A stretch of 13,677 nt of DNA from Promethearchaeota archaeon (lineage in GTDB: Archaea; Asgardarchaeota; Thorarchaeia; Thorarchaeales; Thorarchaeaceae), in the NCBI GenBank assembly GCA_027031765.1, contig JALVPN010000103.1, positions 1 through 13,677 of the forward strand, read 5' to 3'. The position numbers and the translations under genes were made by a program. The notes below the pieces were generated by a model. The model had not been told where the DNA came from and did no database searches. It saw only the letters and a program-made list of their open reading frames with translations. Below, piece by piece: positions 1 through 13,677 of this stretch. The number at the start of each line of letters is the position of its first letter. Within the stretch, counting starts at the first letter, position 1.

Positions 1-2168
1 GTTCGGTACGGTGTGGGTTCACCGGAGCCCTCCTGGGGACAGTGGGGACCTCATTGCTCCCTTCATGCACGTCGGCATTTAACCGACAAGGCATTTGGCT
101 ACCTTAAGAGACTCATAGTTAGTCCCGCCGTTAACCCGAGCTTAGGCCCCTTCCGGAGCTTTGACTGACGGGCACAGAGCAGGATTCAGCGAGTGTACAC
201 GCGGTTTCCCGTTCGCACTCACCTATGTTTGTATTAAACAGTTGGGCCCCCCTTGTTACTAAGACCTGGGAGAGCACCCGTGGGTACCAACCCAGGCACA
301 GCATATCCCGAAGTTACGCTGCTAATTGGCCGATTTCCCTCAGGAGGGGTGACTCCGATACACCTTGGCCTTCTCAGCCAGGGAACCTGTGTCAGTTCTG
401 GGTACGGACTCGGAGGATCCTTCCGGTCTCGCTTTTCAAGGTCACCAGGAATGGGCCGAACGGGTGTCCGACCACCCGCTATTCCACCTTTCGCCCGCCT
501 CTCACCATTACGGTACTCAGCGGGTTTATAGTGTTAAATGGAGCGGCGCTCCACTCGGCTTGTCCCGATGAGTCACAAGACCGGCTTAGCGTTGCCGCGT
601 AGCGTACCTCCGAGGTTCAGGAATATTAACCTGATTCCCTTTCGTGACGCTCGAGTTACGACGCCACTTAGGACCGACTAAGCTTCGGCTGACGACGCAT
701 CGCCGAAGAGCCCTTTCCCTTTCGGTGGCGTGGATTCTCACCACGCTTCGCTGTTACTACCGCCAGGATCATCAAACCCGGCCGGTCCACAGGAGTTCAC
801 ACCCCTGCTTCTCCCCAACCGGGTCGCTCCGCTACCGGATCACGCAGTGTTACCCGCGTGCCGTACGGTCTCGGTGGCCAGATTTAGCCCCGTCCATTTT
901 CAGGGCCGAGAGCCTCGGTCTGTGAGCTGTTACGCACTCGTTCGGGGATAGCTGCTTCTAGGCTCACCCCCAGACTGTCTTGGGCTCTCGACTCCCTTCT
1001 TCACCGCACTTATCTGGCACTTAGGGACCTTAACCGTACTCTCGGTTCTCCCCATCTCGGCCTGCCGGGCTTACCCCGGGCACCCGTCTCCTGCCGTCTA
1101 CGGTTCATGCAGCTTCGGAGTTTTCAGGATGGTGAAGGGCTTGTGGCCCCCCGCTCCAATCCGGAAGTGCTCTACACCACATGATACCTCAAGCAGGGCT
1201 TGGCTGCGACCAACTTCGCGGAGAACGAGCAATCACCAGTCTAGATAAGCCTTTTACCCCTACGCCCAGCTCAACGGAACGAGTTGCACGTCAGAACCCT
1301 TTCGGGCCTCCACCGAGCTTTCGCCCGGCTTCACCCTGGCCAGGCCTAGATCGACTGGCTTCTCGTGTCATGGGAGTGACTACGCGCGCTGTTCACACGC
1401 CGCCCCTCACCCTTGCGGGCTGCGGGCCTGTCGGTTCCCCTACGTTTACGGCTTGACGCCTTATCCTCGCCACGCCCATGAACTCCCTGGCCCGTGTTTC
1501 AAGACGGATGATGCTGACTCGATCCGCTCTGGTCCTAATACAGGATTGCTCCTGCCTCGTTCCCAGAGCATCTGCTCTTTTAGTCAGCATCCTTTGAGTA
1601 GACCAGTGGTTTCAGGTGCTTTGCACTCCGCTCCCGCGGTACTTTTCACCTTTCGCTCGCGCTACTAGTCTGCTATCGGTTTGGCTGAGTATTTAGGCTT
1701 GGCAGATTGTGACTGCCGGCTTCACGCGAGAAGACCAACCCGCGCTACTCGAGGACACACGGACATGCCCTTGCTTTACGCCTACGGGGGTATCACCCTC
1801 TACGCCACGTCGTTCCAGACGACTTCGGCTTAGGCAAGTCGGCAATAAGTCCGTGGCCTTCACACCACATCTCCCCCGACTCTTCGTCAAGGGATTCGGT
1901 TTGGCCTGTTCCGCTTTCGCTCGCTGTTACTCACGGAATCACTTTTGTTTTCTTTTCCTGCCCCTACTAAGATGCTTCAGTTCGGAGCGTTCCCCTTCGA
2001 GTTGCGACCCTCGAATCACACGGGGTATGGAGCCCGTGTGAGGAAGTCCCATTCGGGGATCTACGGATCAACAGCTTCATGCGCCTACCCGTAGCATATC
2101 GCTGCTCGTCACGCCCTTCATCGGCTAGCCAACCTAGGCATCCACCACTGGCCGTACAGCGAAACGCA
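1..2168 (-). rRNA. rrl: 23S ribosomal RNA, archaeal type; partial (3' part runs off the window start); 5' end approximate
   Basis: The reverse complement has universal LSU motifs in the correct order: GGTGGATGCC...GCCGATGAAGG (5' end), GAACTGAAGCATCTTAGTA, CCGATAGCAGACTAGTAGCGCGAGCGAAAGGTGAAAAG, CCGTCTTGAAACACGGGCCAGGGAG, GTCCGTACCCAGAACTGACACAGGT, and H69-H71 GGCGGGACTAACTATGAGTCTCTTAAGGTAGCCAAATGCC. The long H25 region and GTAGCCAAATGCC are archaeal/eukaryote-like. The 5' end was placed by analogy, ~22 nt before GGTGGATG at 2146. Confidence 0.98.
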
Positions 2169-2515
2169 GACCTACTCATGTGACCGGCACAGTATCACCC
2201 GTTGCTCGCGATGTGCGAGACTGATACCGGCTGATCAGTCCAAGGAGTCGCACACAACTATACAGTGTGTGTCGCCATCGTCCTCTGCAGTCCTGGCACA
2301 CGTCCCTTGGTGCACAGCACCGCATCGGGTCGCATCCCACAGACCGTCCCCCATCGGGAATGACGCCCTTCTCTCTGAGCAGTCGGCCCTGACGGGTGCC
2401 CATCTCCCGTCTGTCGACGCCCCGTCTGGTCCCGATGAGTCCCCACGGGGCCGGTGTGGGGAGCCTCCGGCTGGAGGTCTTTGGACAGCTTGCACACCTC
2501 ACGGGTGCGCGTCCC
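2169..2515 (-). other. 23S precursor 5' leader (external transcribed spacer), GC-rich and structured; probably contains the 5' strand of the processing stem
   Basis: Non-coding segment between a TATA box (2536-2542) and the 23S 5' end. Visible helices: CCTCC-GGCT-GGAGG (2464-2477), CACAC...GTGTG (~2251-2270), GTATCA/TGATAC enclosing TCTCGC...GCGAG (~2192-2227), and long-range 2238-2246 with 2478-2486. No tRNA T-loop and no 16S sequence seen. Confidence 0.7.
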
Positions 2516-2535
2516 GGCAGCCAGTTTGGCCCCGG

Positions 2536-2542
2536 TTTTAAA
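2536..2542 (-). promoter_or_regulatory. Archaeal TATA box (TTTAAAA) of the 23S rRNA promoter; possible extra upstream TATA-like sites near 2630-2637 and 2652-2659
   Basis: Minus strand reads gtaatgTTTAAAAccgggg, an AT-rich island in GC-rich DNA just upstream of the structured leader. TTTATT and CTTTATCT further upstream could be tandem promoters, as is common for archaeal rRNA genes. Confidence 0.65.
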
Positions 2543-2692
2543 CATTACTATGCGTCGAGGTTTGCCAGAACGGCTCCACGGCGACCTCCTGAAGCCGCCG
2601 AATAACACCGCCTCTACTCGACGAAAGCACAATAAAGAGGGCGCAATCTGAAGATAAAGCTTACGCAAGGCATCTGGCCATCATGACGCGGG

Positions 2693-3442
2693 TCACGGCC
2701 TGGACGGGGGGGCGGGTGGTGGGCATGTCCGATTGCGGTGAACCCCAAAACACTGGGCCTGTACGCTCACGAGTCTGGAGATGCCCCCTCTTGCGAAGTC
2801 CAGCATCTCGTCAAGGGTCGCCCGACTGAATGGGATGCCCTCAGCTGTACCCTGTATTTCCACGAACAGGTCGTCGAGCATGACCACATTCATGTCGACA
2901 TCAGCACGCACATCCTCCTCGTAACACAGGTCGAGCAAGACGACACCATCGACAACCCCGACACTCACCGCTGCGACATGTCCCCGGACAGGGAGTTCTC
3001 CCACCATGCCGTGGGACACGAGGTAGGAGAGGGCATCGTAGAGAGCGACAAAGCCGCCGGTGATGGACGCCGTCCTCGTGCCACCATCCGCCTGGATCAC
3101 GTCGCAGTCGACACGGACGGTGAACCCGTCCAGCTTGGTCAGGTCGACTGCGGCACGGAGGGAACGGCCGATGAGCCGCTGGATCTCATAGGTGCGCCCA
3201 CTGGTGGTGTGACGGTTGGTGCGCCCGCTGGTGGCACGCGGCAGCATCCCATACTCGGCAGTGACCCAGCCGCGCCCTTCACCGTTGAGCCATGCCGGGA
3301 CACCGGACTCCACGGTGGCGGTGCATATCACCTTTGTGTCGCCAGTGGATATCAGCACCGAGCCCTCGGGATACTTGAGATAGTTACGTACAATCCTCAC
3401 AGGTCTGAGCTCGTCGGGCTGTCGTCCGTCGTTCCTAATCAT
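2693..3442 (-). CDS. rph: Ribonuclease PH, bacterial type (phosphorolytic 3'-5' exoribonuclease), 249 aa
   Basis: Starting at ATG 3442 ([15 protein letters not shown]; GAGGT upstream), the protein has the Rph motifs [63 protein letters not shown] (phosphate site), [18 protein letters not shown] and [12 protein letters not shown]. The longer ORF-track start (3604) adds a low-complexity, non-homologous segment. Confidence 0.95.
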
Positions 3443-3577
3443 ATCCGTAGACCTCTGACTGGCTGTTGGCATCCCAACTGTCCGGACAGGGCCTGACGAC
3501 CTTGCTGACGGTGTGGGCCATGCCGGACTAGGTGGAGTGCAGGGTGCGCCCGCTGGCACTGAGGATGGGCGGAGCAG

Positions 3578-3585
3578 TACTAAAA
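3578..3585 (-). promoter_or_regulatory. Possible TATA box (TTTTAGTA) for rph
   Basis: AT-rich TATA-like octamer in the divergent intergenic region, ~135 nt upstream of the rph ATG. Confidence 0.3.
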
Positions 3586-3702
3586 GATTGGGACTCTGAA
3601 GCAACTGGACGCACCGTGTGTAGGACTAATACTGACGCACACGGACGGGGTGTGTTGCCAGACCCGGCAGACCACTACAGCATGGCATGTCTGTGCCAGA
3701 TA

Positions 3703-3710
3703 TTTTTATT
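3703..3710 (+). promoter_or_regulatory. Putative TATA box (TTTTTATT) for the nucleotidyltransferase gene
   Basis: Most AT-rich stretch in the intergenic region, ~60 nt upstream of ATG 3772. Confidence 0.5.
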
Positions 3711-3771
3711 GAGAGAACCGGTAATGGGTGGACATAGTTTGCGATGAGTCACCATTCGGAGACTGGGCCCC

Positions 3772-4791
3772 ATGATGAGCATTAGAGAGCGGTTCAATGC
3801 AGCACTGAGAGATACGGTTGAGGAATGGAAACGAAAAGACAATGTGAAGGGCATCTTTGTGTTCGGGTCGTATATCACCGGCACACTGACTGTGAACTCG
3901 GATCTTGACATCGGGATTGTGTGGGATGCACAGGACGCACCAGTCCCACTACTCGCAGAACATGGTGGCGTCAGGATAGACATGCACTTCCTCACACCAA
4001 GGTCGATAACGGATGTGGTCGAGGGCAGTTGCACAGACGAGGGGCGTATCTCGGAGGTAATCGGACAGCTGAGAGCAGCGGAGATACTGTATGATAGAGA
4101 TGGTGACCTGAAGAAGTGGCGCGAACAGGCCGGGAGATATGTGTGGCCGGCAGAGGTGATACGAAACGTAAAGGCGCGCGCCCTTGCCATGCTGGACGGC
4201 GCAGAGGAGTTTGCCATGAGTGACGACATGGTCGCGGCGGTCCACGAGTCACGGCGGGGAATGTTTGAACTGGGAAAGGCAATTCTGATGATGAACAACA
4301 TCTTCAAGACAGTCAGGCCCGCAGAGATACTGTCTGAGGTCAGGCTGCTTGACCCAATTGCCTACTCGCTGTTCCTGAGAGCATTCAAACTGAAGGGCCT
4401 CGGGGAAGAAGAACTCTTGGAGATCCTTGCAGACATTGAACACTGGCTTGGCCAGACCGAGGAGCGGATTGGGGAGTTAGAGTGTGACGAACAGACGCTC
4501 CAGATGTTCAACCAGGCACAGAAGGACTATCATGGAGCAATGAACCTGACCTACGCTGGAGACTATGAGCTGGCGGTGCTGGAAATGCGGCGGGCAACCA
4601 ACTCAATTGGGAAGACTCTCCTGCGCGCAGGAGGAACAGTGATAGAAGAGGGGAGGTTCGTGCCGCAACTCCGAGAGCACGAGCCCGAGTACTACAAGAA
4701 CGTATTTGTCAGATATGGGGCGTTCGAAATCCAACCGAAGGGGGTCCAGCGCAACATCGGAGAGGCACGTTTCATCGCCCAACGACTGTGA
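3772..4791 (+). CDS. Pol-beta-superfamily (MNT-like) nucleotidyltransferase with two C-terminal HEPN-like helical domains, 339 aa
   Basis: The N-terminal GIFVFGSYITGTLTVNSDLDIGIV is the GS...DxD NTase motif, with a third acidic residue in RIDMHF. Two helical repeats follow (ARALAMLDGAEEF...DDMVAAVHESRRGMFELGKAIL and QAQKDYHGAMNLTYAGDYELAVLEMRRATNSIGKTLL) that resemble HEPN N-terminal helices. Confidence 0.85.
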   Translation: MMSIRERFNAALRDTVEEWKRKDNVKGIFVFGSYITGTLTVNSDLDIGIVWDAQDAPVPLLAEHGGVRIDMHFLTPRSITDVVEGSCTDEGRISEVIGQLRAAEILYDRDGDLKKWREQAGRYVWPAEVIRNVKARALAMLDGAEEFAMSDDMVAAVHESRRGMFELGKAILMMNNIFKTVRPAEILSEVRLLDPIAYSLFLRAFKLKGLGEEELLEILADIEHWLGQTEERIGELECDEQTLQMFNQAQKDYHGAMNLTYAGDYELAVLEMRRATNSIGKTLLRAGGTVIEEGRFVPQLREHEPEYYKNVFVRYGAFEIQPKGVQRNIGEARFIAQRL

Positions 4792-4909
4792 GCGGGAACG
4801 CCACATGCAGCACATGGTCATGCAGGGACGACATCGGAGAGGCACGTTTCATCGCCCAACGACTGTGAGCGGGAACGCCACATGCAGCACATGGTCATGC
4901 AGGGACGAC
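4754..4909 (+). repeat. Perfect 77-bp tandem duplication (4754-4830 = 4831-4907, plus 2 nt 'ac' of microhomology)
   Basis: ACATCGGAGAGGCACGTTTCATCGCCCAACGACTGTGAGCGGGAACGCCACATGCAGCACATGGTCATGCAGGGACG occurs twice back to back with no mismatch. It spans the NTase stop codon (4789-4791). Confidence 0.97.
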
Positions 4910-5063
4910 GTGAGAGGAGGAGAGGGCAGATAGCATGAGCAAGATGATATGCCAGATGAATTAGTGACCAGCGACTTGCAACCGTGCGGTGGTGGCCAAC
5001 AGGTGGGGCCACAGGGGTCAGATTGATTAGAGCTGTGTGCAACACATGCCCCCGGTGGTGGCA

Positions 5064-5750
5064 ATGCCAGAGCCAGCCCGTATTGTGAGGCTCCAGACGG
5101 TTGCGCTCACACGCGAGAAGCAGACACTCATAGAGAGAGAAATAGACACATATTGCCAGGCCACGAACTTTGCAATCAAGAATATTATGAGGAGGAGGAT
5201 TGCTGGAGCGGGCAGGGCCGTGCAGCTGCTCCGGGACGAGATTGCAAGACACTTCATCCTCAGGAGCGTGGCAACAGGGCAAGAAGGTGTGTCCGACGCA
5301 GAGCTGCGGGACAGGCTCGCGGAGCGGCTGGACCTGGACATCATCAAGAAACGGATGCACGAGAGGTTTGACAGCCCGGAGATGTGGCGAAGGGAGTTCG
5401 CGCTCAGGTACGAGCTGCAGTACGTGAAGGATGTGGTCAAGACGGCCAGAGTAGAGATTGGCCGGCATAGGAGGCTTGCAAAGACCATCCGTTCAATCCG
5501 GGACAGGCCCCCGCACTTCAAGCGAGGACGTATGATTGTTTCAGGAGTGATAGTCGAGGTGTCCCAGAGGGCGCTCCTCCCCCTCCTCACTGATGGGACG
5601 GTCTTGCCGCTCGTCTTCGACAGACGGAGCAGGAGCCGGGCACGGGGAGTACTTGAGAGGATTGACAGGGGCGAGCAGCCCTATGGGCGCGTCAGACTGA
5701 CGTGGAACAGGGCCGGCTATGTTGATATTGACATTAGACTTGAGTCATGA
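5064..5750 (+). CDS. TnpB/Cas12f-like protein with only the N-terminal WED/REC portion (no RuvC, no Zn finger), ~228 aa
   Basis: Likely start ATG 5064 after GGTGGTGG (ORF track starts at 5037). TnpB-like features: RIVRLQTVALTREKQTLIEREIDTYCQATNFAIK (beta strand, then 'eQ..L...Y..A.N' helix), QYVKDVVKTAR, PPHFKRGRMIV, and the WED-closing LPLVFDRR...LERIDRGEQPYGRVRLTWNRAGYVDIDIRLE. The ORF ends where RuvC-I would begin. Recognised by eye, not by HMM. Confidence 0.7.
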   Translation: MPEPARIVRLQTVALTREKQTLIEREIDTYCQATNFAIKNIMRRRIAGAGRAVQLLRDEIARHFILRSVATGQEGVSDAELRDRLAERLDLDIIKKRMHERFDSPEMWRREFALRYELQYVKDVVKTARVEIGRHRRLAKTIRSIRDRPPHFKRGRMIVSGVIVEVSQRALLPLLTDGTVLPLVFDRRSRSRARGVLERIDRGEQPYGRVRLTWNRAGYVDIDIRLES

Positions 5751-5924
5751 CCTACAGGGATGTACGGACAAGTGGTGTGCTGCCGGGACACAACTGGACC
5801 GTTCTTGGAGAGTTGGACGGCCGACGATGGGACGACATGGTGTGTAGTGCTGTAACTGACTGGACGGGGCTGCGACCAGACGGGGCGGGCTGCACCAGAT
5901 GCAGGCACAGGTGGACCAACAGGA

Positions 5925-6818
5925 CTATGAGGGCATCCACAGCGTCAGTGCACCAGCAAAGTCCGTGGTGAGGAAAGCCCCGACCCTTTGTGCCCAAGTT
6001 GCTGCTGTCACACCAGTGTCGAGGCTATGACGCTCAAGACATTTGAGGGGGCGTGTAGACCACAGGCAGACCGTGCGATCCCAGCCACCAGACAGCAGTA
6101 GTCTGCCGTCGTCGCTCAGTGCCAACGCGCTGAGGACACTGGCATGGGCCTGTTCCGAACCGGTCACATGCAGGGAGTCCGGGTCTGCTGTAAGGAGTCG
6201 ACCGTCCTGCAGACCGACGAACAGTACCGAGTCGGAGGGATCCAGGGCCATGGCGCGGATCCGCGAGCTGGCAACATGTGCTGTAGCAAGTGGGGCCAGC
6301 CTTTCAGTCTTCAGGGCTACAACGTTGCCACTCCAGGATGCAACGTACGAGTGTGACCCGCTGCGGGACATTGCCATGGCAGTCACACTGGTCTGATGTG
6401 ACACCACCACGGTCTCCATAGTGAACGGTTCAATATGCAACAGACCGGCAGAACCATCACGACACCCTACAATAGCGGACTTCCCGGCACTGTCAACTGA
6501 GAGTGCCTTGACATCACTGTCACACCGGAGTGTTCCCAAGGGTCTACCGGAGCTCACATCCCAGAGCCTGAGAGTCGCGTCCCACGCCCCTGATACGACC
6601 TGACTCCCCGCCCCTATGAATGCGACCGATGACGTAAGAGACTCATGGCCGTGAATTGCCCGCTGCGGGCGGCCGTTCTTGGCTGACACTATGATTATGC
6701 GGCCGTCAGCAGTGCCACATACAGCTCTATTGCCACGGGGGTGGACACTCACACAGGTAAGGGGGACAGGCGTTTCTCCATGTGGGTGGAATATCACAGC
6801 CTTGTCCACTGGACTCAC
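5925..6818 (-). CDS. Stand-alone WD40-repeat beta-propeller protein (~7 blades), 297 aa
   Basis: Canonical repeats GHESLTSSVAFIGAGSQVVSGAWDATLRLWD and AHASVLSALALSDDGRLLLSGGWDRTVCLW, with ~40-aa periodicity (G.aDG turns) throughout. GTG start. Confidence 0.92.
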   Translation of the reverse strand: MSPVDKAVIFHPHGETPVPLTCVSVHPRGNRAVCGTADGRIIIVSAKNGRPQRAIHGHESLTSSVAFIGAGSQVVSGAWDATLRLWDVSSGRPLGTLRCDSDVKALSVDSAGKSAIVGCRDGSAGLLHIEPFTMETVVVSHQTSVTAMAMSRSGSHSYVASWSGNVVALKTERLAPLATAHVASSRIRAMALDPSDSVLFVGLQDGRLLTADPDSLHVTGSEQAHASVLSALALSDDGRLLLSGGWDRTVCLWSTRPLKCLERHSLDTGVTAATWAQRVGAFLTTDFAGALTLWMPS

Positions 6819-6865
6819 CTAGCAAAGGACTGCAGAGCGTCCAGCCATCCAATGGATGCCGCCCC

Positions 6866-6872
6866 ATTAAAA
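6866..6872 (-). promoter_or_regulatory. Putative TATA box (TTTTAAT) for the WD40 gene, followed by the palindrome CATCC-N3-GGATG (6846-6858)
   Basis: AT-rich heptamer in the 56-nt gap between the M28 stop and the WD40 start, with a perfect 5-bp inverted repeat between it and the start codon. Confidence 0.4.
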
Positions 6873-6874
6873 CA

Positions 6875-7909
6875 TCACTGCTGGAAAGAGGAGGTCTCCC
6901 GAGACCTCACACGACGCACCATCAGGAAAGTCACCAGCACAATCAGTGGTAGGCCTACCAAGGGCACGTAGAAGAGCAGTGGCGAAGTAGTGCTGGCTGG
7001 CGTAGCATCCGTTTCGTTGGTGGAACTCAACACGAACATCTCGACTACGCTGCCGACCCGTTCAAGGCTAGAAGCACTGCACTTATCGGGCGTGTCAGCC
7101 AGGGTGTGCCAGTAAGGTGGGAATGGGTTGTTCTGGATTATGTCTACGGCGGGCATCCCCGCGTCCAAGAAGGGAGTGTGGTCATCAATGACGTACGCAC
7201 CGAAGGAGTCGATGAATGTGGACGAGTAGCCAAGCTCTGCTGCAATTGACCACAAGTTGTCCTGCAGCGTTCTTGTGGAGCTCCGTTCCCGCAGGAACTG
7301 GGCCGATGAGTCACCGACCATGTCGAGGAGAATCATTGCATGGAGGCCGGCACGTCGTTCATCATCCAGTTGACCAACATAGTACGTCGAGCCAACAATC
7401 CACTCCCAACCATTGACCCCACCAGAGTCCTCCGCATCAAAGAACACAAGCTCTACATACTGGCGCGCAGCAACCGGGAGCACACGGGCCAACTCAAGCA
7501 GCACCGCCACACCGCTGGCACCATCATTGGCACCAAGTATTGGGTGTTGACGGTTGGCAGGGTCAGGGTCCTGGTCTGCAACTGGACGCGTGTCGTAGTG
7601 CGCCCCAAGCACTATACTGATGTTGGCCGCATCAGGTGAGCCACGGGCAATAATATTGGCGCAGGCCACGCCCCGGTAGGTGAAGTTCTGCAGCCGCACG
7701 TCCCATCCAAAGGACCCGAGTGTGCTCACGATATATTCGCGACATGAACTCAGGTTCGTAGAGCCAGGGGGGCGTGGGCCGAAGTCACACTGCTGCTGCA
7801 GGTACCCCATTGCTGTAGCACCATCAAATGACAACTGCACTGACCGCTGTGCCGGTTGTGCAAGTATCACAGACAACACGACTAACGAGAAGAGAAGACT
7901 CCTGTGCAA
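6875..7909 (-). CDS. Secreted, C-terminally membrane-anchored M28-family zinc protein, glutaminyl-peptide cyclotransferase (type II QC)-like, ~344 aa
   Basis: Motifs GPRPPGS, IVLGAHYDTR, GANDGASGVAVLLELAR, FFDAEDSG, LLDMVG, DDHTPF and PPYWHT.ADT. Hydrophobic signal-like N-terminus (TTG at 7909, GGAG 9 nt upstream; start uncertain). Ser/Thr linker, TM helix PLLFYVPLVGLPLIVLVTFLMV and basic tail RRVRSR at the C-terminus. Confidence 0.9.
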   Translation of the reverse strand: MHRSLLFSLVVLSVILAQPAQRSVQLSFDGATAMGYLQQQCDFGPRPPGSTNLSSCREYIVSTLGSFGWDVRLQNFTYRGVACANIIARGSPDAANISIVLGAHYDTRPVADQDPDPANRQHPILGANDGASGVAVLLELARVLPVAARQYVELVFFDAEDSGGVNGWEWIVGSTYYVGQLDDERRAGLHAMILLDMVGDSSAQFLRERSSTRTLQDNLWSIAAELGYSSTFIDSFGAYVIDDHTPFLDAGMPAVDIIQNNPFPPYWHTLADTPDKCSASSLERVGSVVEMFVLSSTNETDATPASTTSPLLFYVPLVGLPLIVLVTFLMVRRVRSRETSSFQQ

Positions 7910-7943
7910 CTGGATCAACTCCGGGAACGACTGTGCAGACCTA

Positions 7944-9170
7944 TCAAACTTTTGGATGCGCCGCGAGACGTTGCCGGACACTCGTGCGGACAAGAAATGG
8001 GATCTCACGGGGTAGCATCCGGAGGACTGTCACTGGGACTCTCGAGTAGTCGATTTCGCCCCGCGCCAACATTGCAAGGACTTCTGAGGACAGACGCAGC
8101 CGGGCGGCCCGCATGAGAACGGCCCTGACGAAACGTATGCCACGTCCTCCGACCCAGCCAGCCGTGCTGAAACCGGCGCCGAACTCCGCAGAGCAGAGCT
8201 CTTGGTACCGGGACAGGAATGCTGCATCGAACCGGCCAGCCTCAAAGGCGTCGGCTGCAACATGTGCAGCATGGACACCAGAACGCATGGCATATGCAAT
8301 TCCCTCCCCCATCATTGGGTCGACCCACCCAGCCGCATCACCGACCAAGATTATGTGGTCGGTCACGTTCGTGTTCTTGAGGCCCCAGCCACCAAGGAAG
8401 TGTGTACGTCTCTTCTCGGGGCGTAGTAACAGGCCACAGCGCCGTGCAGTCGTGGCCACAAACTCGTCAAAGACTGTCCGCAGTGGGTGCATATCGAGGG
8501 CGCCCCCGGCAACACCAATTGCCAGGTGCTCACGTTTTGGGAACACCCAACCGTAGCAGAGCCGGGTGGGGTGTGGTGCGACTTCGAGCACTGATGGGTC
8601 GTCCCCCATCGTCTTGAGGACACCAGACTCACCAACGTGGAAGTCGGCCTCCATGCCGATGCCTACACGCGTCAGGTCCTTACGTGGAGGACGCAGGCCC
8701 ACCGAGCGACCGACCGTGGTGTTGACGCCGTCTGCTGCAATCAGTAGTCGTGAGACGAACTCCCGTCCATCACTGAGACGCGCATGCACTGAGCCACCGG
8801 TGACCGACACATCGACCACTCGTGCCTGCTCCAAGAGTTCAGCCCCGGCACTCACCGCACGGCGGGCCAAGAACTCGTCAAACACAGACCGGAATACAGT
8901 GACCCCTAACAGACGTTGTGACCTGAACTCGGCGACCTCGTCGTCAGGGAACCTGAAGCGCATGCCGTAGATCTCGCGTTCCACAACTCGGCGGGGGAGT
9001 GTCCCGACCACCCTCAGACCACGATACATGACGGCGCCGCCACAGGGCTTGTCACGGGGCAGCGCAGCCTTCTCAAGCAGGAGCGTACGTAGACCAAGGC
9101 GTGCACAGTGGAATGCTGCGGCCGAGCCAGACGGGCCGGCCCCGACCACAACAACGTCGAAGTCGTGCAG
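7944..9170 (-). CDS. Geranylgeranyl reductase family FAD-dependent oxidoreductase (DGGGPL-reductase-like), ~408 aa
   Basis: FDVVVVGAGPSG (GxGxxG FAD motif), DKPCGG, LLIAADG, YGWVFPK and GDAAGWVDPMMGEGIAYAMRSG. The start is uncertain: CTG 9170 lies 6 nt after GAGGTG; alternatives are TTG 9176, GTG 9179 and ATG 9236. Confidence 0.92.
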   Translation of the reverse strand: MHDFDVVVVGAGPSGSAAAFHCARLGLRTLLLEKAALPRDKPCGGAVMYRGLRVVGTLPRRVVEREIYGMRFRFPDDEVAEFRSQRLLGVTVFRSVFDEFLARRAVSAGAELLEQARVVDVSVTGGSVHARLSDGREFVSRLLIAADGVNTTVGRSVGLRPPRKDLTRVGIGMEADFHVGESGVLKTMGDDPSVLEVAPHPTRLCYGWVFPKREHLAIGVAGGALDMHPLRTVFDEFVATTARRCGLLLRPEKRRTHFLGGWGLKNTNVTDHIILVGDAAGWVDPMMGEGIAYAMRSGVHAAHVAADAFEAGRFDAAFLSRYQELCSAEFGAGFSTAGWVGGRGIRFVRAVLMRAARLRLSSEVLAMLARGEIDYSRVPVTVLRMLPREIPFLVRTSVRQRLAAHPKV

Positions 9171-9270
9171 GATCAACACCTCAATTACACTGATACGTGG
9201 CGGACTGACGGCCGGATGACCGGTATCAGCGTACATAGGTCTGCCGGCTCAGAACCGAGTGGAAGTGCGA

Positions 9271-9912
9271 CTACATATCACGGCAGCCGGTACAACCGGC
9301 CCTGGGACGGACACCGACCCGTCGCATGAGCTTTCCCCCAGGCATCTCATCACGACCCCCATCAGGTACTGTGGACCCCTCAACCCGGATCTCGTGATGA
9401 CCAGTTACTTCGAACCCGTAGCTGAGAACTAGGAGCTTGGACGGTGTGTTCTCCTCGTAGACCTCGCAGTACACCTCTTCGACACCAGCATCTATGAAGA
9501 ACTCAGTGGCCCGCATTATCAGGGCGGTGGCAACACCACGTCTGCGCCGGGACGGGACGACGCACAGGGAAGTTATCTCACCATATACTGTATCACCTGT
9601 ATGTTCCACAAAACACGTGATGAAGCCGACGAGAGAGCCCCACATCTCAGCCACGAACATGCCCTCAAGGTCGAGCTCCTCGACCTGCTCCACTGTCACA
9701 GGACAGAAGGGGTCTGGTGAGGCGAGAAAGCACTGGTTATAGAGGGATACGAACTTGGGGATTTCATCACGCCGGAGACTGCGGACATGAATGTAGTCGG
9801 GGACGACCTTTCGGGCCCACCACTCCTCTGCAAGCCTCAGTGCTTCCTGTGCGTTGGCACGCATTATCAGATATGTGCGTACACGACCGCCCTCAGATTG
9901 TTGACGCTCCAA
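9271..9912 (-). CDS. GNAT-family N-acetyltransferase (RimI/MshD-like) with a C-terminal CxxC tail, ~213 aa
   Basis: Acetyl-CoA motif A (EITSLCVVPSRRRRGVATALI), motif B (VYCEVYEENTPSKLLVLSYGF) and FVAE..G.LVGF. TTG start at 9912 lies 7 nt after a perfect AGGAGGTG (9920-9927). Confidence 0.9.
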   Translation of the reverse strand: MERQQSEGGRVRTYLIMRANAQEALRLAEEWWARKVVPDYIHVRSLRRDEIPKFVSLYNQCFLASPDPFCPVTVEQVEELDLEGMFVAEMWGSLVGFITCFVEHTGDTVYGEITSLCVVPSRRRRGVATALIMRATEFFIDAGVEEVYCEVYEENTPSKLLVLSYGFEVTGHHEIRVEGSTVPDGGRDEMPGGKLMRRVGVRPRAGCTGCRDM

Positions 9913-9945
9913 ATGACAACACCTCCTCTTCACGGATGGCCCTGC

Positions 9946-10722
9946 TCACGGGCGCATGATGCGGTCAATGGCCCGAATGGCAGCCTCAATCTCAAGACCG
10001 ACAGCCTCGACCAGGCGCGGGTCCTGTTCGCCAGTCTGCTCGTCATCGACGCTCTGTTCGCCCTTCTGGTCGCTATGGAGGTTACCATCACACGCCAAGA
10101 TGGAAGCAGCATGGATGCCATGGGTGGTCGCGAATACAAAGAGGAGTGAGCTCTCCATCTCCACACACTTGACCCGTGCCCGTGTCCAGAGCCTGAGTGG
10201 GCCCTGCATGTCCCGCAGGTAGTACACATCGGTCGTCCAACAGACCCCCACATGTACACGATCCTCTGGGAGCAGTGCAGAGATCTCGTCGTGGAGCGCG
10301 GCACACCAGATGGGCGAGGCGACGGCGGGGTACTCGATGGGAGCATAGTTCAGACTCGTGCGCTCGTCACGGACGCAGGCGATGGGCACCACAACATCAC
10401 CAGTCTTGACAACCGGGTCGATGCCACCGCATGTGCCAATCCGGATAATGACCTCGGCCCCAAGACGCGCCAACTCCTCGATGCAGATGTGTGTCGAGGG
10501 GGAGCCGATGCCGGTACCAGAGACCGTGACCTGTATCCCACCGGGCGTGTGCCCCCGATAGGTGACAAACCCCCGGTAGCGGGCAACTTCCTCAGCATCT
10601 CTGAGGGCCGATGCAATCACCGGTACACGGTCGGGGTTCCCAGAGATGAGGACGATACGCTCAACATCACCCTCGCCAACTCTCAGGTGTGGTTGGACTC
10701 TACGTTTCAAGTATTCCACCAC
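9946..10722 (-). CDS. udp: Uridine phosphorylase-like nucleoside phosphorylase (NP-I / PNP_UDP_1 family), 258 aa
   Basis: GNPDRV, GTGIGSPS...IEEL, IIRIGTCGG, VRDERTSLNYAPIEYPAVA, TTDVYY and VEMESS match Udp-family motifs. Substrate specificity cannot be confirmed from sequence alone. Confidence 0.85.
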   Translation of the reverse strand: MVEYLKRRVQPHLRVGEGDVERIVLISGNPDRVPVIASALRDAEEVARYRGFVTYRGHTPGGIQVTVSGTGIGSPSTHICIEELARLGAEVIIRIGTCGGIDPVVKTGDVVVPIACVRDERTSLNYAPIEYPAVASPIWCAALHDEISALLPEDRVHVGVCWTTDVYYLRDMQGPLRLWTRARVKCVEMESSLLFVFATTHGIHAASILACDGNLHSDQKGEQSVDDEQTGEQDPRLVEAVGLEIEAAIRAIDRIMRP

Positions 10723-10755
10723 CAGCCAGACAACACTAGTAACGGGTCTACAGGG

Positions 10756-10763
10756 TAATAAAA
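10756..10763 (-). promoter_or_regulatory. Putative TATA box (TTTTATTA) for the udp-GNAT-GGR-M28 run
   Basis: Located 33 nt upstream of the GTG at 10722, which implies a very short leader, as is typical in archaea. Confidence 0.55.
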
Positions 10764-10869
10764 CGGCCGGCTTCTAGGCAGACAGGTGGACCAGCCACTG
10801 CTCATGCCATCTTGCCCCCGTACAGGGACGCAGAGTGGGCACAGGAGGACTTGGTGGGGGAACACAGTC

Positions 10870-12390
10870 CTAGTCTGGCATGAACCGTGTGAGGTCGAGA
10901 GCAACACGTGGCACAACCCATTTGCGCCTCTCACTGTTCCAGTAACGCACGATGTCGAGCATCGACTTGGAACCCTTTAGGCGGACAGTCATTATCGGCT
11001 GGACCGAATGGACTCCGGGCTCAGCCTCTAGTGAGCGGAACATCCGGTAGTACTCGACCTGCTGCTCACCGGGTACTTGAATCCAGACGACAAGACCCTT
11101 GTGGGACTCGAAGTGGACTGTTGAGGGGAGCAGTGGGAGTCTTTCTATGATGTGCCCACGCCAGTCGGGGTCACATATAATCTCGAAGCAGAAGTTTGTG
11201 GACAGGCCAAGTCCCCCGAATGACACGACAGGCGTCACGACCCGTTTCCGGTACAGCTTGTTGACCGACCGGGCTGCGCGTCGCTCTGAGACCTCAAGAC
11301 CACGCAGGCGAAGGAGGCGGTGTATCTCAACCGCTTGCATACGGGAGTTGACGCGCAGCTGCGAGGCCACAGCGAAGTCAATGACATCGAGGCCGCGCAG
11401 TGGGCCTGTACATGAGAGCCTGTGGACAGCAGTCACCTCAGCGGCTCCCGGGGGTGTGGCATCCATCAGGGCGGTCACATCACAGGGTAGTGCCCACTTG
11501 CCGTCTTCGAAGAGCTCCAGGTTCCAGCTTGCACCAAGTCCTCGTTGGAGGTGGAGAGTGTAGTTGTCGAAGACATCTGGCGCGAGAGAGTCGACCGACC
11601 GCATGAGCTCCGATACATTGACGACCGGGCCGGGGATGAGAAATGACACATAGCCAAGAGGGGAGAGGGATGTCTTTAGGATTCCCTTTGTGAACGGATA
11701 GTATGACAGCGCCTGTTCAAACCGCATCCACTGCTCCTCGTCTCGCACAGAGAAGAACAGGAGCACCGACTGCACATCGAAGCTTGACGTGTCAACAAGC
11801 GCTGTGAACCGCAGGGTATTCCGTTCGCGGAGGATATCCATGCGACGGCTCACGGCCTTGGCGCAGGCACCAACGGTCCGTCTAATCACCCCGGCGTGTA
11901 TGAGGGGCGCACGTACGAGTGCCTTCAACACTGCAAGAGTGAGCCTGTCGACCGGAGCCCCATCCGTCATGAACCCGAAGCTGTAGGCAGAACGGACAGA
12001 CTCTGTGGTAAAGAGGTCGTACTTCCTCAGTACACGGAGGTTCTCAAGGATGCGGTCACGGATGGACTCGCTGACCGGGTGAAGAGTGGGGTCTGTGGGG
12101 AAGCGTGAAAACTCAGGGTTGGACTTGAGGAGTTCAGCCTCACGCACAGCCTCCTCGAAAGTGAGCGTGCCAGCACACAGGGCAAGGTATATGCGTATTG
12201 CATCAAGGTAGAAACGGACGGAGGGCTCACTCACACAGGGGATCAGATTATCCCACGGTGTAGAGAATGCTGTATGGGAAGAACCTTCGCCCGCGCACAC
12301 GGCCTTGTCTCCCGGGTGGGAACATTCCCTCATTGAGGACTCTGCGTCGGACATCAGTCCGGCGTCTTGTAGACTGACTACACCCCCCAC
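10870..12390 (-). CDS. Double Lrp/AsnC-like regulator (unknown N-terminal domain + wHTH-RAM-wHTH-RAM), ~490-506 aa
   Basis: Two Lrp-type HTHs, VDRLTLAVLKALVRAPLIHAGVIRRTVGACAKAVSRRMDILRERNTLRFTALVDTSSFDV and LDVIDFAVASQLRVNSRMQAVEIHRLL...SERRAARSVNKLYRKRVV, each followed by a beta-alpha-beta-beta ferredoxin-like segment. The start may be ATG 12354 or 12333. Confidence 0.75.
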   Translation of the reverse strand: MGGVVSLQDAGLMSDAESSMRECSHPGDKAVCAGEGSSHTAFSTPWDNLIPCVSEPSVRFYLDAIRIYLALCAGTLTFEEAVREAELLKSNPEFSRFPTDPTLHPVSESIRDRILENLRVLRKYDLFTTESVRSAYSFGFMTDGAPVDRLTLAVLKALVRAPLIHAGVIRRTVGACAKAVSRRMDILRERNTLRFTALVDTSSFDVQSVLLFFSVRDEEQWMRFEQALSYYPFTKGILKTSLSPLGYVSFLIPGPVVNVSELMRSVDSLAPDVFDNYTLHLQRGLGASWNLELFEDGKWALPCDVTALMDATPPGAAEVTAVHRLSCTGPLRGLDVIDFAVASQLRVNSRMQAVEIHRLLRLRGLEVSERRAARSVNKLYRKRVVTPVVSFGGLGLSTNFCFEIICDPDWRGHIIERLPLLPSTVHFESHKGLVVWIQVPGEQQVEYYRMFRSLEAEPGVHSVQPIMTVRLKGSKSMLDIVRYWNSERRKWVVPRVALDLTRFMPD

Positions 12391-13436
12391 AAAACCTGCA
12401 CTAATCCTTTTCGCGTAAGGGACGGGTCAACGACCATTGTACAGTGAGGGATCCCCTTTCCAGCCAGTCGCCTCATGAGTCTGGACACTGTGAGCCAATT
12501 GGCCGTACTGGGGAGCGACAAGTCGAGGACTGTAAGGCCATCGCCAGAAACAATCCGGACCCGTGGCAGCAGCATTGCCTGGGCCTGCAGTGTACGTGAA
12601 ACAGGGGAGTCGGACGGCGCCCCCTCAAAGCATAACAGGAGCCTCTGAGTCAGACCGATACGACGAATGTCTGCAAATGGCTGTACTGCGACTGAACGGA
12701 GTCTGGCCAGGGCACGGCGCAAAGTGCGTTTCGACACTGGTGGAAGGCCAAGATGCACCAAGAGCCCGTGGACAGTCTTTGAACTGACGTGGTAGTCCGA
12801 CTCGAGCGCGGCCGCCGCAACAACCTCCTGTGGTTGTGGTTCTCGACAGCGGGTCTGTTCCACTGTGTTCGTCAGCATCGGGAGGACTTCGGCGTACCTG
12901 CCGGCGGCATCTGCCACAGCTTCCAGACGAAAACCATCATAGTGGGCCCAGCGAGTGCCGTCGAACCCACTGAGGTTGATGTGGTGACCGAGCAGGCGAG
13001 CAAGGTCGTACCTCAGACCAAAGCCATACGGCGGTTGTGAGAACCGTTCCAGCCGGGCAAGCCAAGTCTGGTGTTCAGAGCAAGGGACGACTGCCTCAAA
13101 GTAGACGCGGTCGTCACCGACTGAGGTCATCACCGACCTTGCGACCACGGTCGATGCAGGGACTGCGGATAGCCACCTCTCAAACTTTGTGAGCGTGGCG
13201 GAGGTGCCGGCAGAGAAGGCCCAGCCGAACACGAGCACGAAACCAACATGACCATAGTCGAGTGTGCTCGCCACGGCCAGTCTACCAGAACGCAGTAGTC
13301 TACGCCAGACCTGGTTGACCGCGGAACGGGTGACACGCAGCTCCCTGGCCAGTGCGCTCTGAGTGACCGATGGGTTGGCAGCCAGACGACGCAGAATCCT
13401 GAGCTCAAACTCTGAAACGGGACGTGGTGTGTTCAG
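12378..13436 (-). CDS. Double Lrp/AsnC-like regulator (wHTH-RAM-wHTH-RAM), ~352 aa, apparent CTG start
   Basis: The frame of the 12378-13274 ORF stays open upstream and encodes a clear HTH: LNTPRPVSEFELRILRRLAANPSVTQSALARELRVTRSAVNQVWRRLLRSGRLAVASTLDYGHVG. The second HTH is QEVVAAAALESDYHVSSKTVHGLL...VSKRTLRRALARLR. GAGGTG (13444-13449) sits 7 nt before CTG 13436. Confidence 0.75.
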   Translation of the reverse strand: MNTPRPVSEFELRILRRLAANPSVTQSALARELRVTRSAVNQVWRRLLRSGRLAVASTLDYGHVGFVLVFGWAFSAGTSATLTKFERWLSAVPASTVVARSVMTSVGDDRVYFEAVVPCSEHQTWLARLERFSQPPYGFGLRYDLARLLGHHINLSGFDGTRWAHYDGFRLEAVADAAGRYAEVLPMLTNTVEQTRCREPQPQEVVAAAALESDYHVSSKTVHGLLVHLGLPPVSKRTLRRALARLRSVAVQPFADIRRIGLTQRLLLCFEGAPSDSPVSRTLQAQAMLLPRVRIVSGDGLTVLDLSLPSTANWLTVSRLMRRLAGKGIPHCTMVVDPSLTRKGLVQVLWGV

Positions 13437-13443
13437 GAGTGTT

Positions 13444-13452
13444 CACCTCACC
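13444..13452 (-). promoter_or_regulatory. Strong Shine-Dalgarno site (GGTGAGGTG)
   Basis: Complementary to the usual archaeal 16S 3' tail. Its spacing to CTG 13436 matches that of the AGGAGGTG site to TTG 9912 in the GNAT gene. Confidence 0.7.
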
Positions 13453-13677
13453 TGTGGCCAGATGTTAAGCAGAGAGCAACGAAAAGGTCCATCGAGCACA
13501 ACCCCGGTTTCCATACGCACTCTTGTGGGCGCACAGGACATCAGGAGGGGCCCTACGGTGGCCCTCAGGCATGTTCGGATAGGCATCTACCTTATAATTG
13601 ACATCATCAGTATTGTCGTGAGGTAGAATCTGTGGCCTTCTGGTCCAGTCCCGGTTGACCGTTCACCGTTGCACGGT

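Follow-up and report, generated by a model that had tools for sequence, protein, structure and literature searches.

A stand-alone TnpB-type WED and REC protein kept as a single-copy core gene in the Thorarchaeaceae

Gene X and its predicted protein

The window analysed here is a 13,677-nucleotide (nt) stretch of DNA from a Promethearchaeota archaeon of the family Thorarchaeaceae (GenBank assembly GCA_027031765.1, contig JALVPN010000103.1, positions 1 to 13,677 of the forward strand). It carries a gene, hereafter referred to as gene X, that lies at 5064..5750 (+; stop codon included) between a nucleotidyltransferase (NTase) gene and a convergent WD40 gene. On the basis of translation, an AlphaFold2 (AF2) model, structural searches with Foldseek and VIA-align and profile alignment with hhalign, its 228-aa product is predicted to be a stand-alone protein of the TnpB type comprising WED and REC parts, and the gene is a single-copy, selected core gene of the Thorarchaeaceae, inherited vertically at a fixed chromosomal position. 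The frame is open throughout and its translation ends in ...VDIDIRLES*, confirming the intact open reading frame (ORF) of about 228 aa noticed in an earlier reading of the letters alone (the sequence-only reading). That reading had extended the feature over 5064-5924; the ORF is real, and the remainder, 5751-5924, is a lineage-specific spacer. A GTG at 5037 could also serve as start, although two things speak for the ATG at 5064: the orthologue alignment, and a Shine-Dalgarno (SD)-like GGTGGTGG at 5054..5061 (+), 3-10 nt before the ATG, where most orthologous loci have a GTGG or GTGA.

The predicted protein opens with a WED N-terminal strand (residues 1-14; 5064..5105, +; model strand E6-12) that aligns with the first strand of TnpB and Cas12f, and continues with a REC helical bundle (residues 15-149; 5106..5510, +; model helices H17-146) marked by conserved columns and by LTREKQ, Y..A.N and DVVKTA..IGRHR motifs. 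Within REC, the orthologue alignment and protein lengths across genomes delimit a lineage-variable helical insert (residues ~66-118; 5259..5417, +), which is found in the 'long form' of X (~228-257 aa) and not in a form of ~180 aa. The WED C-terminal beta strands (residues 150-228; 5511..5747, +; model strands E156-226) carry the P.FK, FDKRSRN and RVRLTWN..G..DIDIR motifs. In an alignment of 43 X sequences the most conserved motifs are LTREKQ, Y30..A33.N35, P150.F152-K153, FDKRSRN and RVRLTWN..GY.DIDIR, and D123, P150, S160, D186, R190, R209 and R211 are invariant. The N-terminal strand, Y..A.N, P.FK and C-terminal WED strands singled out by the sequence-only reading are thus present and rank among the best-conserved columns. 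The family is strongly basic (median pI 9.9, net charge +12), with 16 alignment columns that are at least 85% Lys or Arg and cluster in the last REC helix and the C-terminal WED sheet; conserved basic columns within REC are K126, R136, R143, R146 and R148. A conserved surface so rich in Arg and Lys is typical of nucleic-acid binding.

Relationship to the recognition lobe of TnpB and Cas12f

Direct look-ups of X in Pfam, NCBIfam, PADLOC, PHROGs and the PDB, by sequence and by profile, returned no significant match. The AF2 model built on the family alignment (mean pLDDT 95.0, pTM 0.91) shows a single N-terminal strand, a helical bundle and then six C-terminal strands, and its relatives in structure searches are of one kind. 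In Foldseek against the PDB all 23 matches at E ≤ 1e-3 were Cas12f, dCas12f or Cas12n, with ISDra2 TnpB (8exa_A) following at 1.8e-3. A wide VIA-align search of 48,161 chains, independent of Foldseek, placed Cas12, TnpB or Fanzor chains in all of its best 32 rows, the first unrelated chain having a Z of 4.4; dCas12f 9n9c_A was the top structural match (Z 12.3, 165 aligned residues, root-mean-square deviation 3.6, chain residues 3-212), with AsCas12f 8dzj_A at Z 12.2 and TnpB 8h1j_A at Z 9.9 (chain residues 1-175). The aligned chain range was the N-terminal WED+REC lobe in every case, and a shape search of the Atlas with X also led to TnpB clusters.

Profile comparison is consistent with these structural matches. 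Aligned by hhalign against 22 Asgard TnpBs, the X family gave a probability of 95.2% and an E-value of 2.7e-8 over 164 columns, corresponding to TnpB positions 9-174; the match spans essentially the whole of X and ends just before the RuvC-I motif of TnpB. The X family profile also weakly matches genuine TnpBs of other Asgard genomes, among them a 401-aa protein with both PF07282 and PF01385. Because the model matches are confined to this lobe and the profile alignment stops before RuvC-I, X is, on both modelled structure and sequence profiles, homologous to the WED+REC recognition lobe of TnpB and Cas12f and contains nothing else. The sequence-only reading had proposed this WED/REC identity, to be given up should comparison with ISDra2 TnpB and Cas12f structures yield no match; AF2, Foldseek, VIA-align and hhalign all bear it out.

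Of the TnpB relatives found for X at the sequence level, the closest is a 232-aa TnpB-like ORF from another Asgard family (L021:4232-4930; G201:C3), which scores E 5.5e-5 against the X profile and stops shortly past RuvC-I. This ORF is a genuinely truncated TnpB, and its relatives are full-length and multi-copy.

Absence of a nuclease half and of mobile-element context

Neither the window nor the whole assembly of the source genome (229 contigs, 2.95 Mb, 95% completeness, 1.4% contamination) contains a match to PF01385 (RuvC) or to the Y1 transposase family PF01797 (TnpA), or a match above cut-off to the zinc-ribbon TNB family PF07282. The flanks of X have no insertion sequence (IS) ends and no repeats, and are unique within the genome. 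No CRISPR or other repeat array is found in 3500-6900 besides a 77-nt duplication of the NTase 3' end, and no Rfam CRISPR or tracr model matches in the window. These results agree with the sequence-only reading, which had seen neither a RuvC-I motif downstream nor tnpA or IS ends nearby. Given the lack of PF01385, of PF01797 and of PF07282 above cut-off, X is retained in its own genome without any nuclease half in trans.

Could X be the N-terminal half of a split TnpB whose RuvC/TNB half is encoded separately? Short stand-alone TnpB-N-like clusters ('Transposase (Fragment)', MJ0013-like) do occur in other prokaryotes, and TnpB genes are common in other Thorarchaeaceae, PF07282 being present in 65 of 85 genomes of the family and in 280 of 400 Asgard genomes. 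Yet X is intact and selected in a genome that lacks both nuclease-half families as described above, and the TnpBs of its relatives are full-length, so that we regard a split TnpB as very improbable. TnpB proper in Asgard archaea, Thorarchaeaceae included, is moreover multi-copy and patchy, the opposite of X, which is single-copy and near-universal in the family. The same PF07282 counts dispose of the idea of X as a TnpB antagonist, which predicts an anticorrelation between the two.

Distribution, selection and origin

X is present as one copy in its own genome and was found in 79 of 85 other Thorarchaeaceae genomes, in 23 of the 24 high-quality genomes (the own genome counted) and in 16 of 17 genera. 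Its relatives are all annotated as Thorarchaeota; outside the Thorarchaeaceae no strong match was seen in one sister-family genome or in the other Asgard genomes searched. Among 1.84 billion representatives, a filter-free search recovered 17 X clusters only, none with a RuvC part, and a dedicated search for longer X homologues found none. Across genera the sequences are 34-50% identical with invariant motifs, and the pairwise ratio of nonsynonymous to synonymous substitution rates (dN/dS, or omega) has a median of 0.14 and a range of 0.07-0.31 over 23 pairs with dS between 0.05 and 1.5.

This pattern bears on the alternative that X is a pseudogene fragment of TnpB, either decaying neutrally or truncated recently. 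X does end exactly where RuvC-I would begin, and one source labels a homologue 'predicted transposase'. Such a fragment is nonetheless scarcely credible and is refuted by conservation: frames are intact in the genomes listed save for one internal stop in one genome, the position is fixed, and dN/dS is low across sequences that have diverged widely with their motifs unchanged. Synteny further excludes independent insertions as the source of the X orthologues. Conservation, synteny and purifying selection together support the view that X is an exapted, or domesticated, protein and not a sporadic truncation. An exapted protein is what the sequence-only reading had suggested, to be judged by the truncation point, synteny and dN/dS of the orthologues; among them synteny is conserved, no member carries a RuvC part and dN/dS is low, whereas full-length orthologues and neutral decay, the outcome it had named as contrary, were not observed.

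One genome of a sister family (G001; L054, C23:89500-98500) has a full-length NTase orthologue, at 31% identity, without X. From this comparison, X appears to have arrived at the base of the Thorarchaeaceae, downstream of an NTase gene that was already there. A tnpB-bearing element would have inserted at this site in the family's ancestor, and would later have been truncated and then fixed.

Two observations on divergent loci may be added. In the sister-family genome the NTase gene is followed by genes for a 102-aa membrane protein and a profilin, and RNase PH lies about 3 kb off, past a PmbA/TldD pair. The one long member among the 17 X clusters, a divergent protein of 377 aa on a metagenome contig (L055:6001-7134; FWPU01004879.1), carries a C-terminal helical-repeat extension of ~180 aa (RPWE..L... 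units) where the nuclease domain would be; the WD40 neighbour is not present at this locus or at its relatives L056-L058.

The upstream nucleotidyltransferase gene

The gene preceding X (3772..4791, +) encodes an NTase of 339 aa that is ANT(4')/kanamycin-nucleotidyltransferase (KNTase)-like by Pfam (NTP_transf_2), AF2 model and Foldseek. Its model (pLDDT 92.5) has as best Foldseek matches 6p01, 1kan, 3c18 ('nucleotidyltransferase-like protein') and HalB of the Hailong defence system, and is predicted to consist of a minimal NTase and a helical HEPN-like C-domain, not of the CCA-adding or poly(A)-polymerase type. The usual locus order is RNase PH (-) / NTase / X / WD40 (-) / M28 peptidase (-) / FAD oxidoreductase (-). 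The order NTase (+) then X (+) is kept in 24 of 24 loci examined, and loss of the RNase PH or WD40 neighbour does not break up the pair.

This constancy, which extends to divergent loci with changed neighbours, and the confinement of the NTase and X families to the same lineage are what one would expect were X a protein-protein adaptor or regulatory subunit of the NTase, its nucleic-acid fold reused for docking. We consider such a role unlikely. X appears to have a promoter-position box and an SD of its own, the sister-family genome has the NTase and no X, and the conserved surface of X is dominated by Arg and Lys. The NTase is, in addition, under very strong purifying selection (omega ~0.05; 0.046 vs 0.14 for X), X evolving three times faster. 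A complex prediction for NTase plus X gave an ipSAE of 0.00, which carries no weight either way.

The 3' end of the NTase gene lies within a perfect 2 x 77-nt tandem duplication (4754..4907, +; copies 4754-4830 and 4831-4907) specific to the own genome. The repeated unit comprises the last 38 nt of the NTase gene, its stop codon and 36 nt downstream, leaves the NTase protein unaffected and lengthens the NTase-X spacer. It is supported, in contigs from the sequencing run, by a junction contig (4803-4860) and by a repeat node at about double depth.

A conserved box upstream of gene X

Alignment of the NTase-X spacers revealed one standout block, TAGATTGATTAG(G), with the core ATTGATTAG, 31-36 nt before the ATG. 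In the window this newly found cis element, conserved across genera, reads CAGATTGATTAG (5019..5030, +) and ends 33 nt before the ATG of X, which makes it a candidate promoter element or operator. The box is identical or nearly so in most genera, with the variants ATTGATTAA, ATTGATATG, ATTCATTAG and ACTGATTAA, and is followed by non-conserved sequence and then by a GTGG-type SD. The exact 11-mer AGATTGATTAG has two copies in the own 2.95-Mb genome against 0.5 expected, and at least 23 further genomes across the class have it immediately before X; the box 9-mer occurs genome-wide at chance level. By its sequence and placing, the box is a gene-specific element at the position of a promoter (TATA box/B recognition element, TATA/BRE).

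Several other interpretations of the box were considered and rejected. As a generic promoter motif it fails, given that the sequences preceding 419 crude gene starts show no enrichment of its 6-mers and that the 9-mer is no more frequent than chance. It does not mark a regulon, the extra exact copies of the 11-mer in three other genomes being mostly intragenic. A short hairpin just past the box had a covarying look in one genus and is not general (mean z -0.06 over 35 distinct sequences). We note that the other copy of AGATTGATTAG in the own genome (C174:96-106; locus L078) is followed, about 90 nt further downstream, by a 135-aa ORF that matches DUF3467 at a borderline level; this copy may be a chance occurrence.

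Flanking spaces as candidate RNA genes

The sequence-only reading had put forward the spaces on either side of the ORF, 4910-5063 and 5751-5924, as candidate RNA-encoding regions. Neither folds better than its shuffles (z +1.57 and +0.77 on the two strands of the former, +0.29 and +1.22 on those of the latter), neither matches Rfam at E ≤ 1, and RNAalifold detects no consensus structure on either strand of the orthologous upstream spacers. The 6-bp hairpin noted at 4992-5012 is there in the sequence, although the region around it folds worse than shuffles (z +1.57). Counterparts in orthologous loci are likewise missing. The upstream gap, 272 nt in the window, of which 77 nt stem from the tandem duplication, is ~50-70 nt in most loci; on the downstream side, four loci have a gap of 2-8 nt, and in the others X and the next gene either overlap or are up to 64 nt apart. 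The spacer between X and the convergent WD40 gene (5751..5924) is non-coding, lineage-specific and unique in the genome, with no feature detected in it. An RNA overlapping the 3' coding end of X was also considered, windowed NG86 estimates having hinted at lower dS there, and was rejected: synonymous codon identity is 0.59 vs 0.60 (permutation p 0.69).

Since the flanks have no structure, Rfam match or orthologous counterpart, the sequences examined lend no support here to guide dependence of X. Where the sequence-only reading spoke of a minimal binder or guide-dependent regulator, the exapted lobe stands, guide dependence lacks support, and regulator is a role that we infer.

These data weigh most directly on the possibility that X is an RNA-binding protein that kept its scaffold-RNA surface and binds a structured cellular RNA encoded elsewhere, whether as a guide-dependent regulator or, as it might be, as an RNA 3'-end specificity factor acting with the NTase and RNase PH. 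WED and REC touch the omega RNA or single-guide RNA (sgRNA) scaffold in all solved TnpB and Cas12f complexes, and in Cas12f dimers the WED/REC lobe of the second protomer binds guide RNA (8dzj_B, 7wju_B); the best Foldseek matches of X include such protomers, which bind RNA only. X is also very basic, its pairing with the NTase is invariant, and a bacterial-type RNase PH lies beside the pair in most loci. Against RNA binding stand the lack of a conserved or structured non-coding RNA next to X (flank z at least +0.29 on both strands), intergenic gaps in orthologous loci that are too short for an RNA gene, the absence of extra constraint on synonymous sites in the last third of the ORF, and a TnpB guide/target channel that does not exist without the RuvC lobe. 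The fold of the NTase, which is not that of CCA-adding enzymes or poly(A) polymerases, and its occurrence without X in the sister family also count against a shared RNA 3'-end function. We therefore view an RNA ligand as a possible but distinctly less probable explanation than the one set out below.

Proposed function of X

On balance, we think it probable that X is a domesticated, TnpB-derived, non-catalytic and guide-independent nucleic-acid binder, most likely of duplex DNA. It derives from a TnpB (OMEGA; IS200/IS605/IS607-type) by complete loss of RuvC and of the zinc-ribbon TNB, with retention of WED and REC; this identity and the domestication are shown by the data above, and the ligand is inferred. 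In established structures, WED and REC read the duplex of the target-adjacent or protospacer-adjacent motif (TAM/PAM) and hold the scaffold RNA, and the guide-target channel requires the RuvC lobe. X would bind nucleic acid through the cleft that TnpB and Cas12f use for the TAM/PAM duplex. As there is no RuvC lobe to form a guide or heteroduplex channel and no conserved RNA gene beside X, binding would most likely be guide-independent and on duplex DNA.

The best candidate site would be the ATTGATTAG box of the promoter of X itself, which, speculatively, would amount to autoregulation; a candidate box-bearing duplex is TAGATTGATTAGG. That X is a sequence-specific DNA binder in this fuller sense, its former TAM cleft reading a short duplex motif without a guide and the box serving as its operator, is a doubtful proposition that we put forward tentatively.

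A number of points weigh against duplex DNA as ligand and the box as site. Given the Cas12f second protomers, RNA binding is equally compatible with the fold of X, and the constant NTase neighbour could point to a protein partner or to an RNA substrate. The box sits where a TATA/BRE would lie for a transcript with a leader of ~12 nt and may simply be a promoter. It is missing from the three most divergent loci (L055-L057) and from a few others (G013, G023), and if it were the operator of X, the regulon would be almost X alone. A fossil TAM or left end is not supported either, no similar box being found upstream of 21 sampled Asgard TnpB genes; TTGAT resembles the ISDra2 TAM. The only public run with the locus is a hydrothermal-vent DNA metagenome, and no RNA run is listed.

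Comparison with known systems

In TnpB (OMEGA; ISDra2 TnpB, 8h1j/8exa) and Cas12f (8dzj, 7wju) the WED beta-barrel and REC bundle follow the same order as in X, and X shares with them (P/L)T.E.Q, Y..A.N, P.FK and the C-terminal WED strands. TnpB has in addition a RuvC domain with a D-E-D triad, the TNB zinc ribbon, an adjacent omega RNA, element ends, TnpA and multiple copies, none of which is found with X. The omega RNA of TnpB is encoded at the gene's 3' end or beyond it, where X has tiny downstream gaps in its orthologous loci and an unstructured spacer without Rfam match; nor does X have the CRISPR array and trans-activating CRISPR RNA (tracrRNA) that go with Cas12f, as judged from the surrounding region of the window and from Rfam.

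The nearest functional parallels are immobilised, host-retained derivatives of TnpB and Cas12f that, like X, gave up DNA cleavage: TldR, and the natural dCas12f or sigma-factor-associated exapted Cas12f (bioRxiv 10.1101/2023.11.30.569447 and 10.1101/2025.06.10.658865; dCas12f PDB 9n9c). These proteins are bacterial, retain a RuvC fold that is mutated or C-terminally trimmed, and have their guide RNA adjacent, whereas X is archaeal, has lost the whole nuclease lobe and has no RNA or repeat next to it. To our knowledge, all exapted TnpB and Cas12 derivatives described so far (Cas12k, Cas12m, TldR, dCas12f) keep the RuvC scaffold and a guide RNA. The portions of Altae-Tran et al. 2023 (PMC10691335) considered here describe inactivated and C-terminally truncated TnpBs and mention no form without the whole RuvC domain; among the clades catalogued there, the 'GATase-TnpB' of the Sulfolobales, a mini-TnpB without REC, is the mirror image of X: this archaeal, single-copy, domesticated derivative is described as having kept RuvC/TNB and lost the recognition lobe.

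A further comparison concerns three uncharacterised Pfam 38.1 families of short TnpB-N-like proteins of 165-260 aa, PF27142 (Aq_aa04), PF27229 (SSO2105_N) and PF27234 (MJ0013). They are the nearest Atlas neighbours of X, with scores of 0.94-0.95 and TM values by row of 0.55-0.79 in what is a comparison of language-model features and predicted shapes only, and no sequence-level match to their members was seen in the X sequence searches. Many of these proteins are annotated as transposase fragments, and they are not known as syntenic core genes. Literature searches did not turn up any stand-alone WED/REC family without RuvC that had been described as a conserved host gene. X is thus an undescribed way of recycling an RNA-guided nuclease, in which the recognition half alone is kept and the cutting half is gone.

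A WED+REC-only protein under selection throughout a lineage would demonstrate that the lobe works as a functional module on its own, and X may offer a minimal natural system in which to study how TAM/PAM-type duplexes are read or scaffold RNA is bound. With X, the Asgard archaea, the closest prokaryotic relatives of eukaryotes, also gain a lineage-specific core gene. If X recognises a defined DNA motif unguided, it would represent a new DNA-binding fold in archaeal regulation, as a transcription factor or a chromatin protein, and a very small (~180 aa) scaffold for engineering.

Other features of the window

Two adjacent ORFs further downstream, at 10870-12390 (-; 506 aa) and 12378-13274 (-; 298 aa), were compared with Pfam and NCBIfam without a match at E ≤ 0.01. 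On the other side of the NTase gene, and divergent from it, lies an RNase PH gene (2693-3604, -) that is of the bacterial type in spite of its archaeal host (TIGR01966, 329 bits, far above the Rrp41/Rrp42 models). This gene, which is found beside the NTase in most Thorarchaeaceae loci, adjoins the 23S rRNA gene (1-2169, -) that occupies the beginning of the window.

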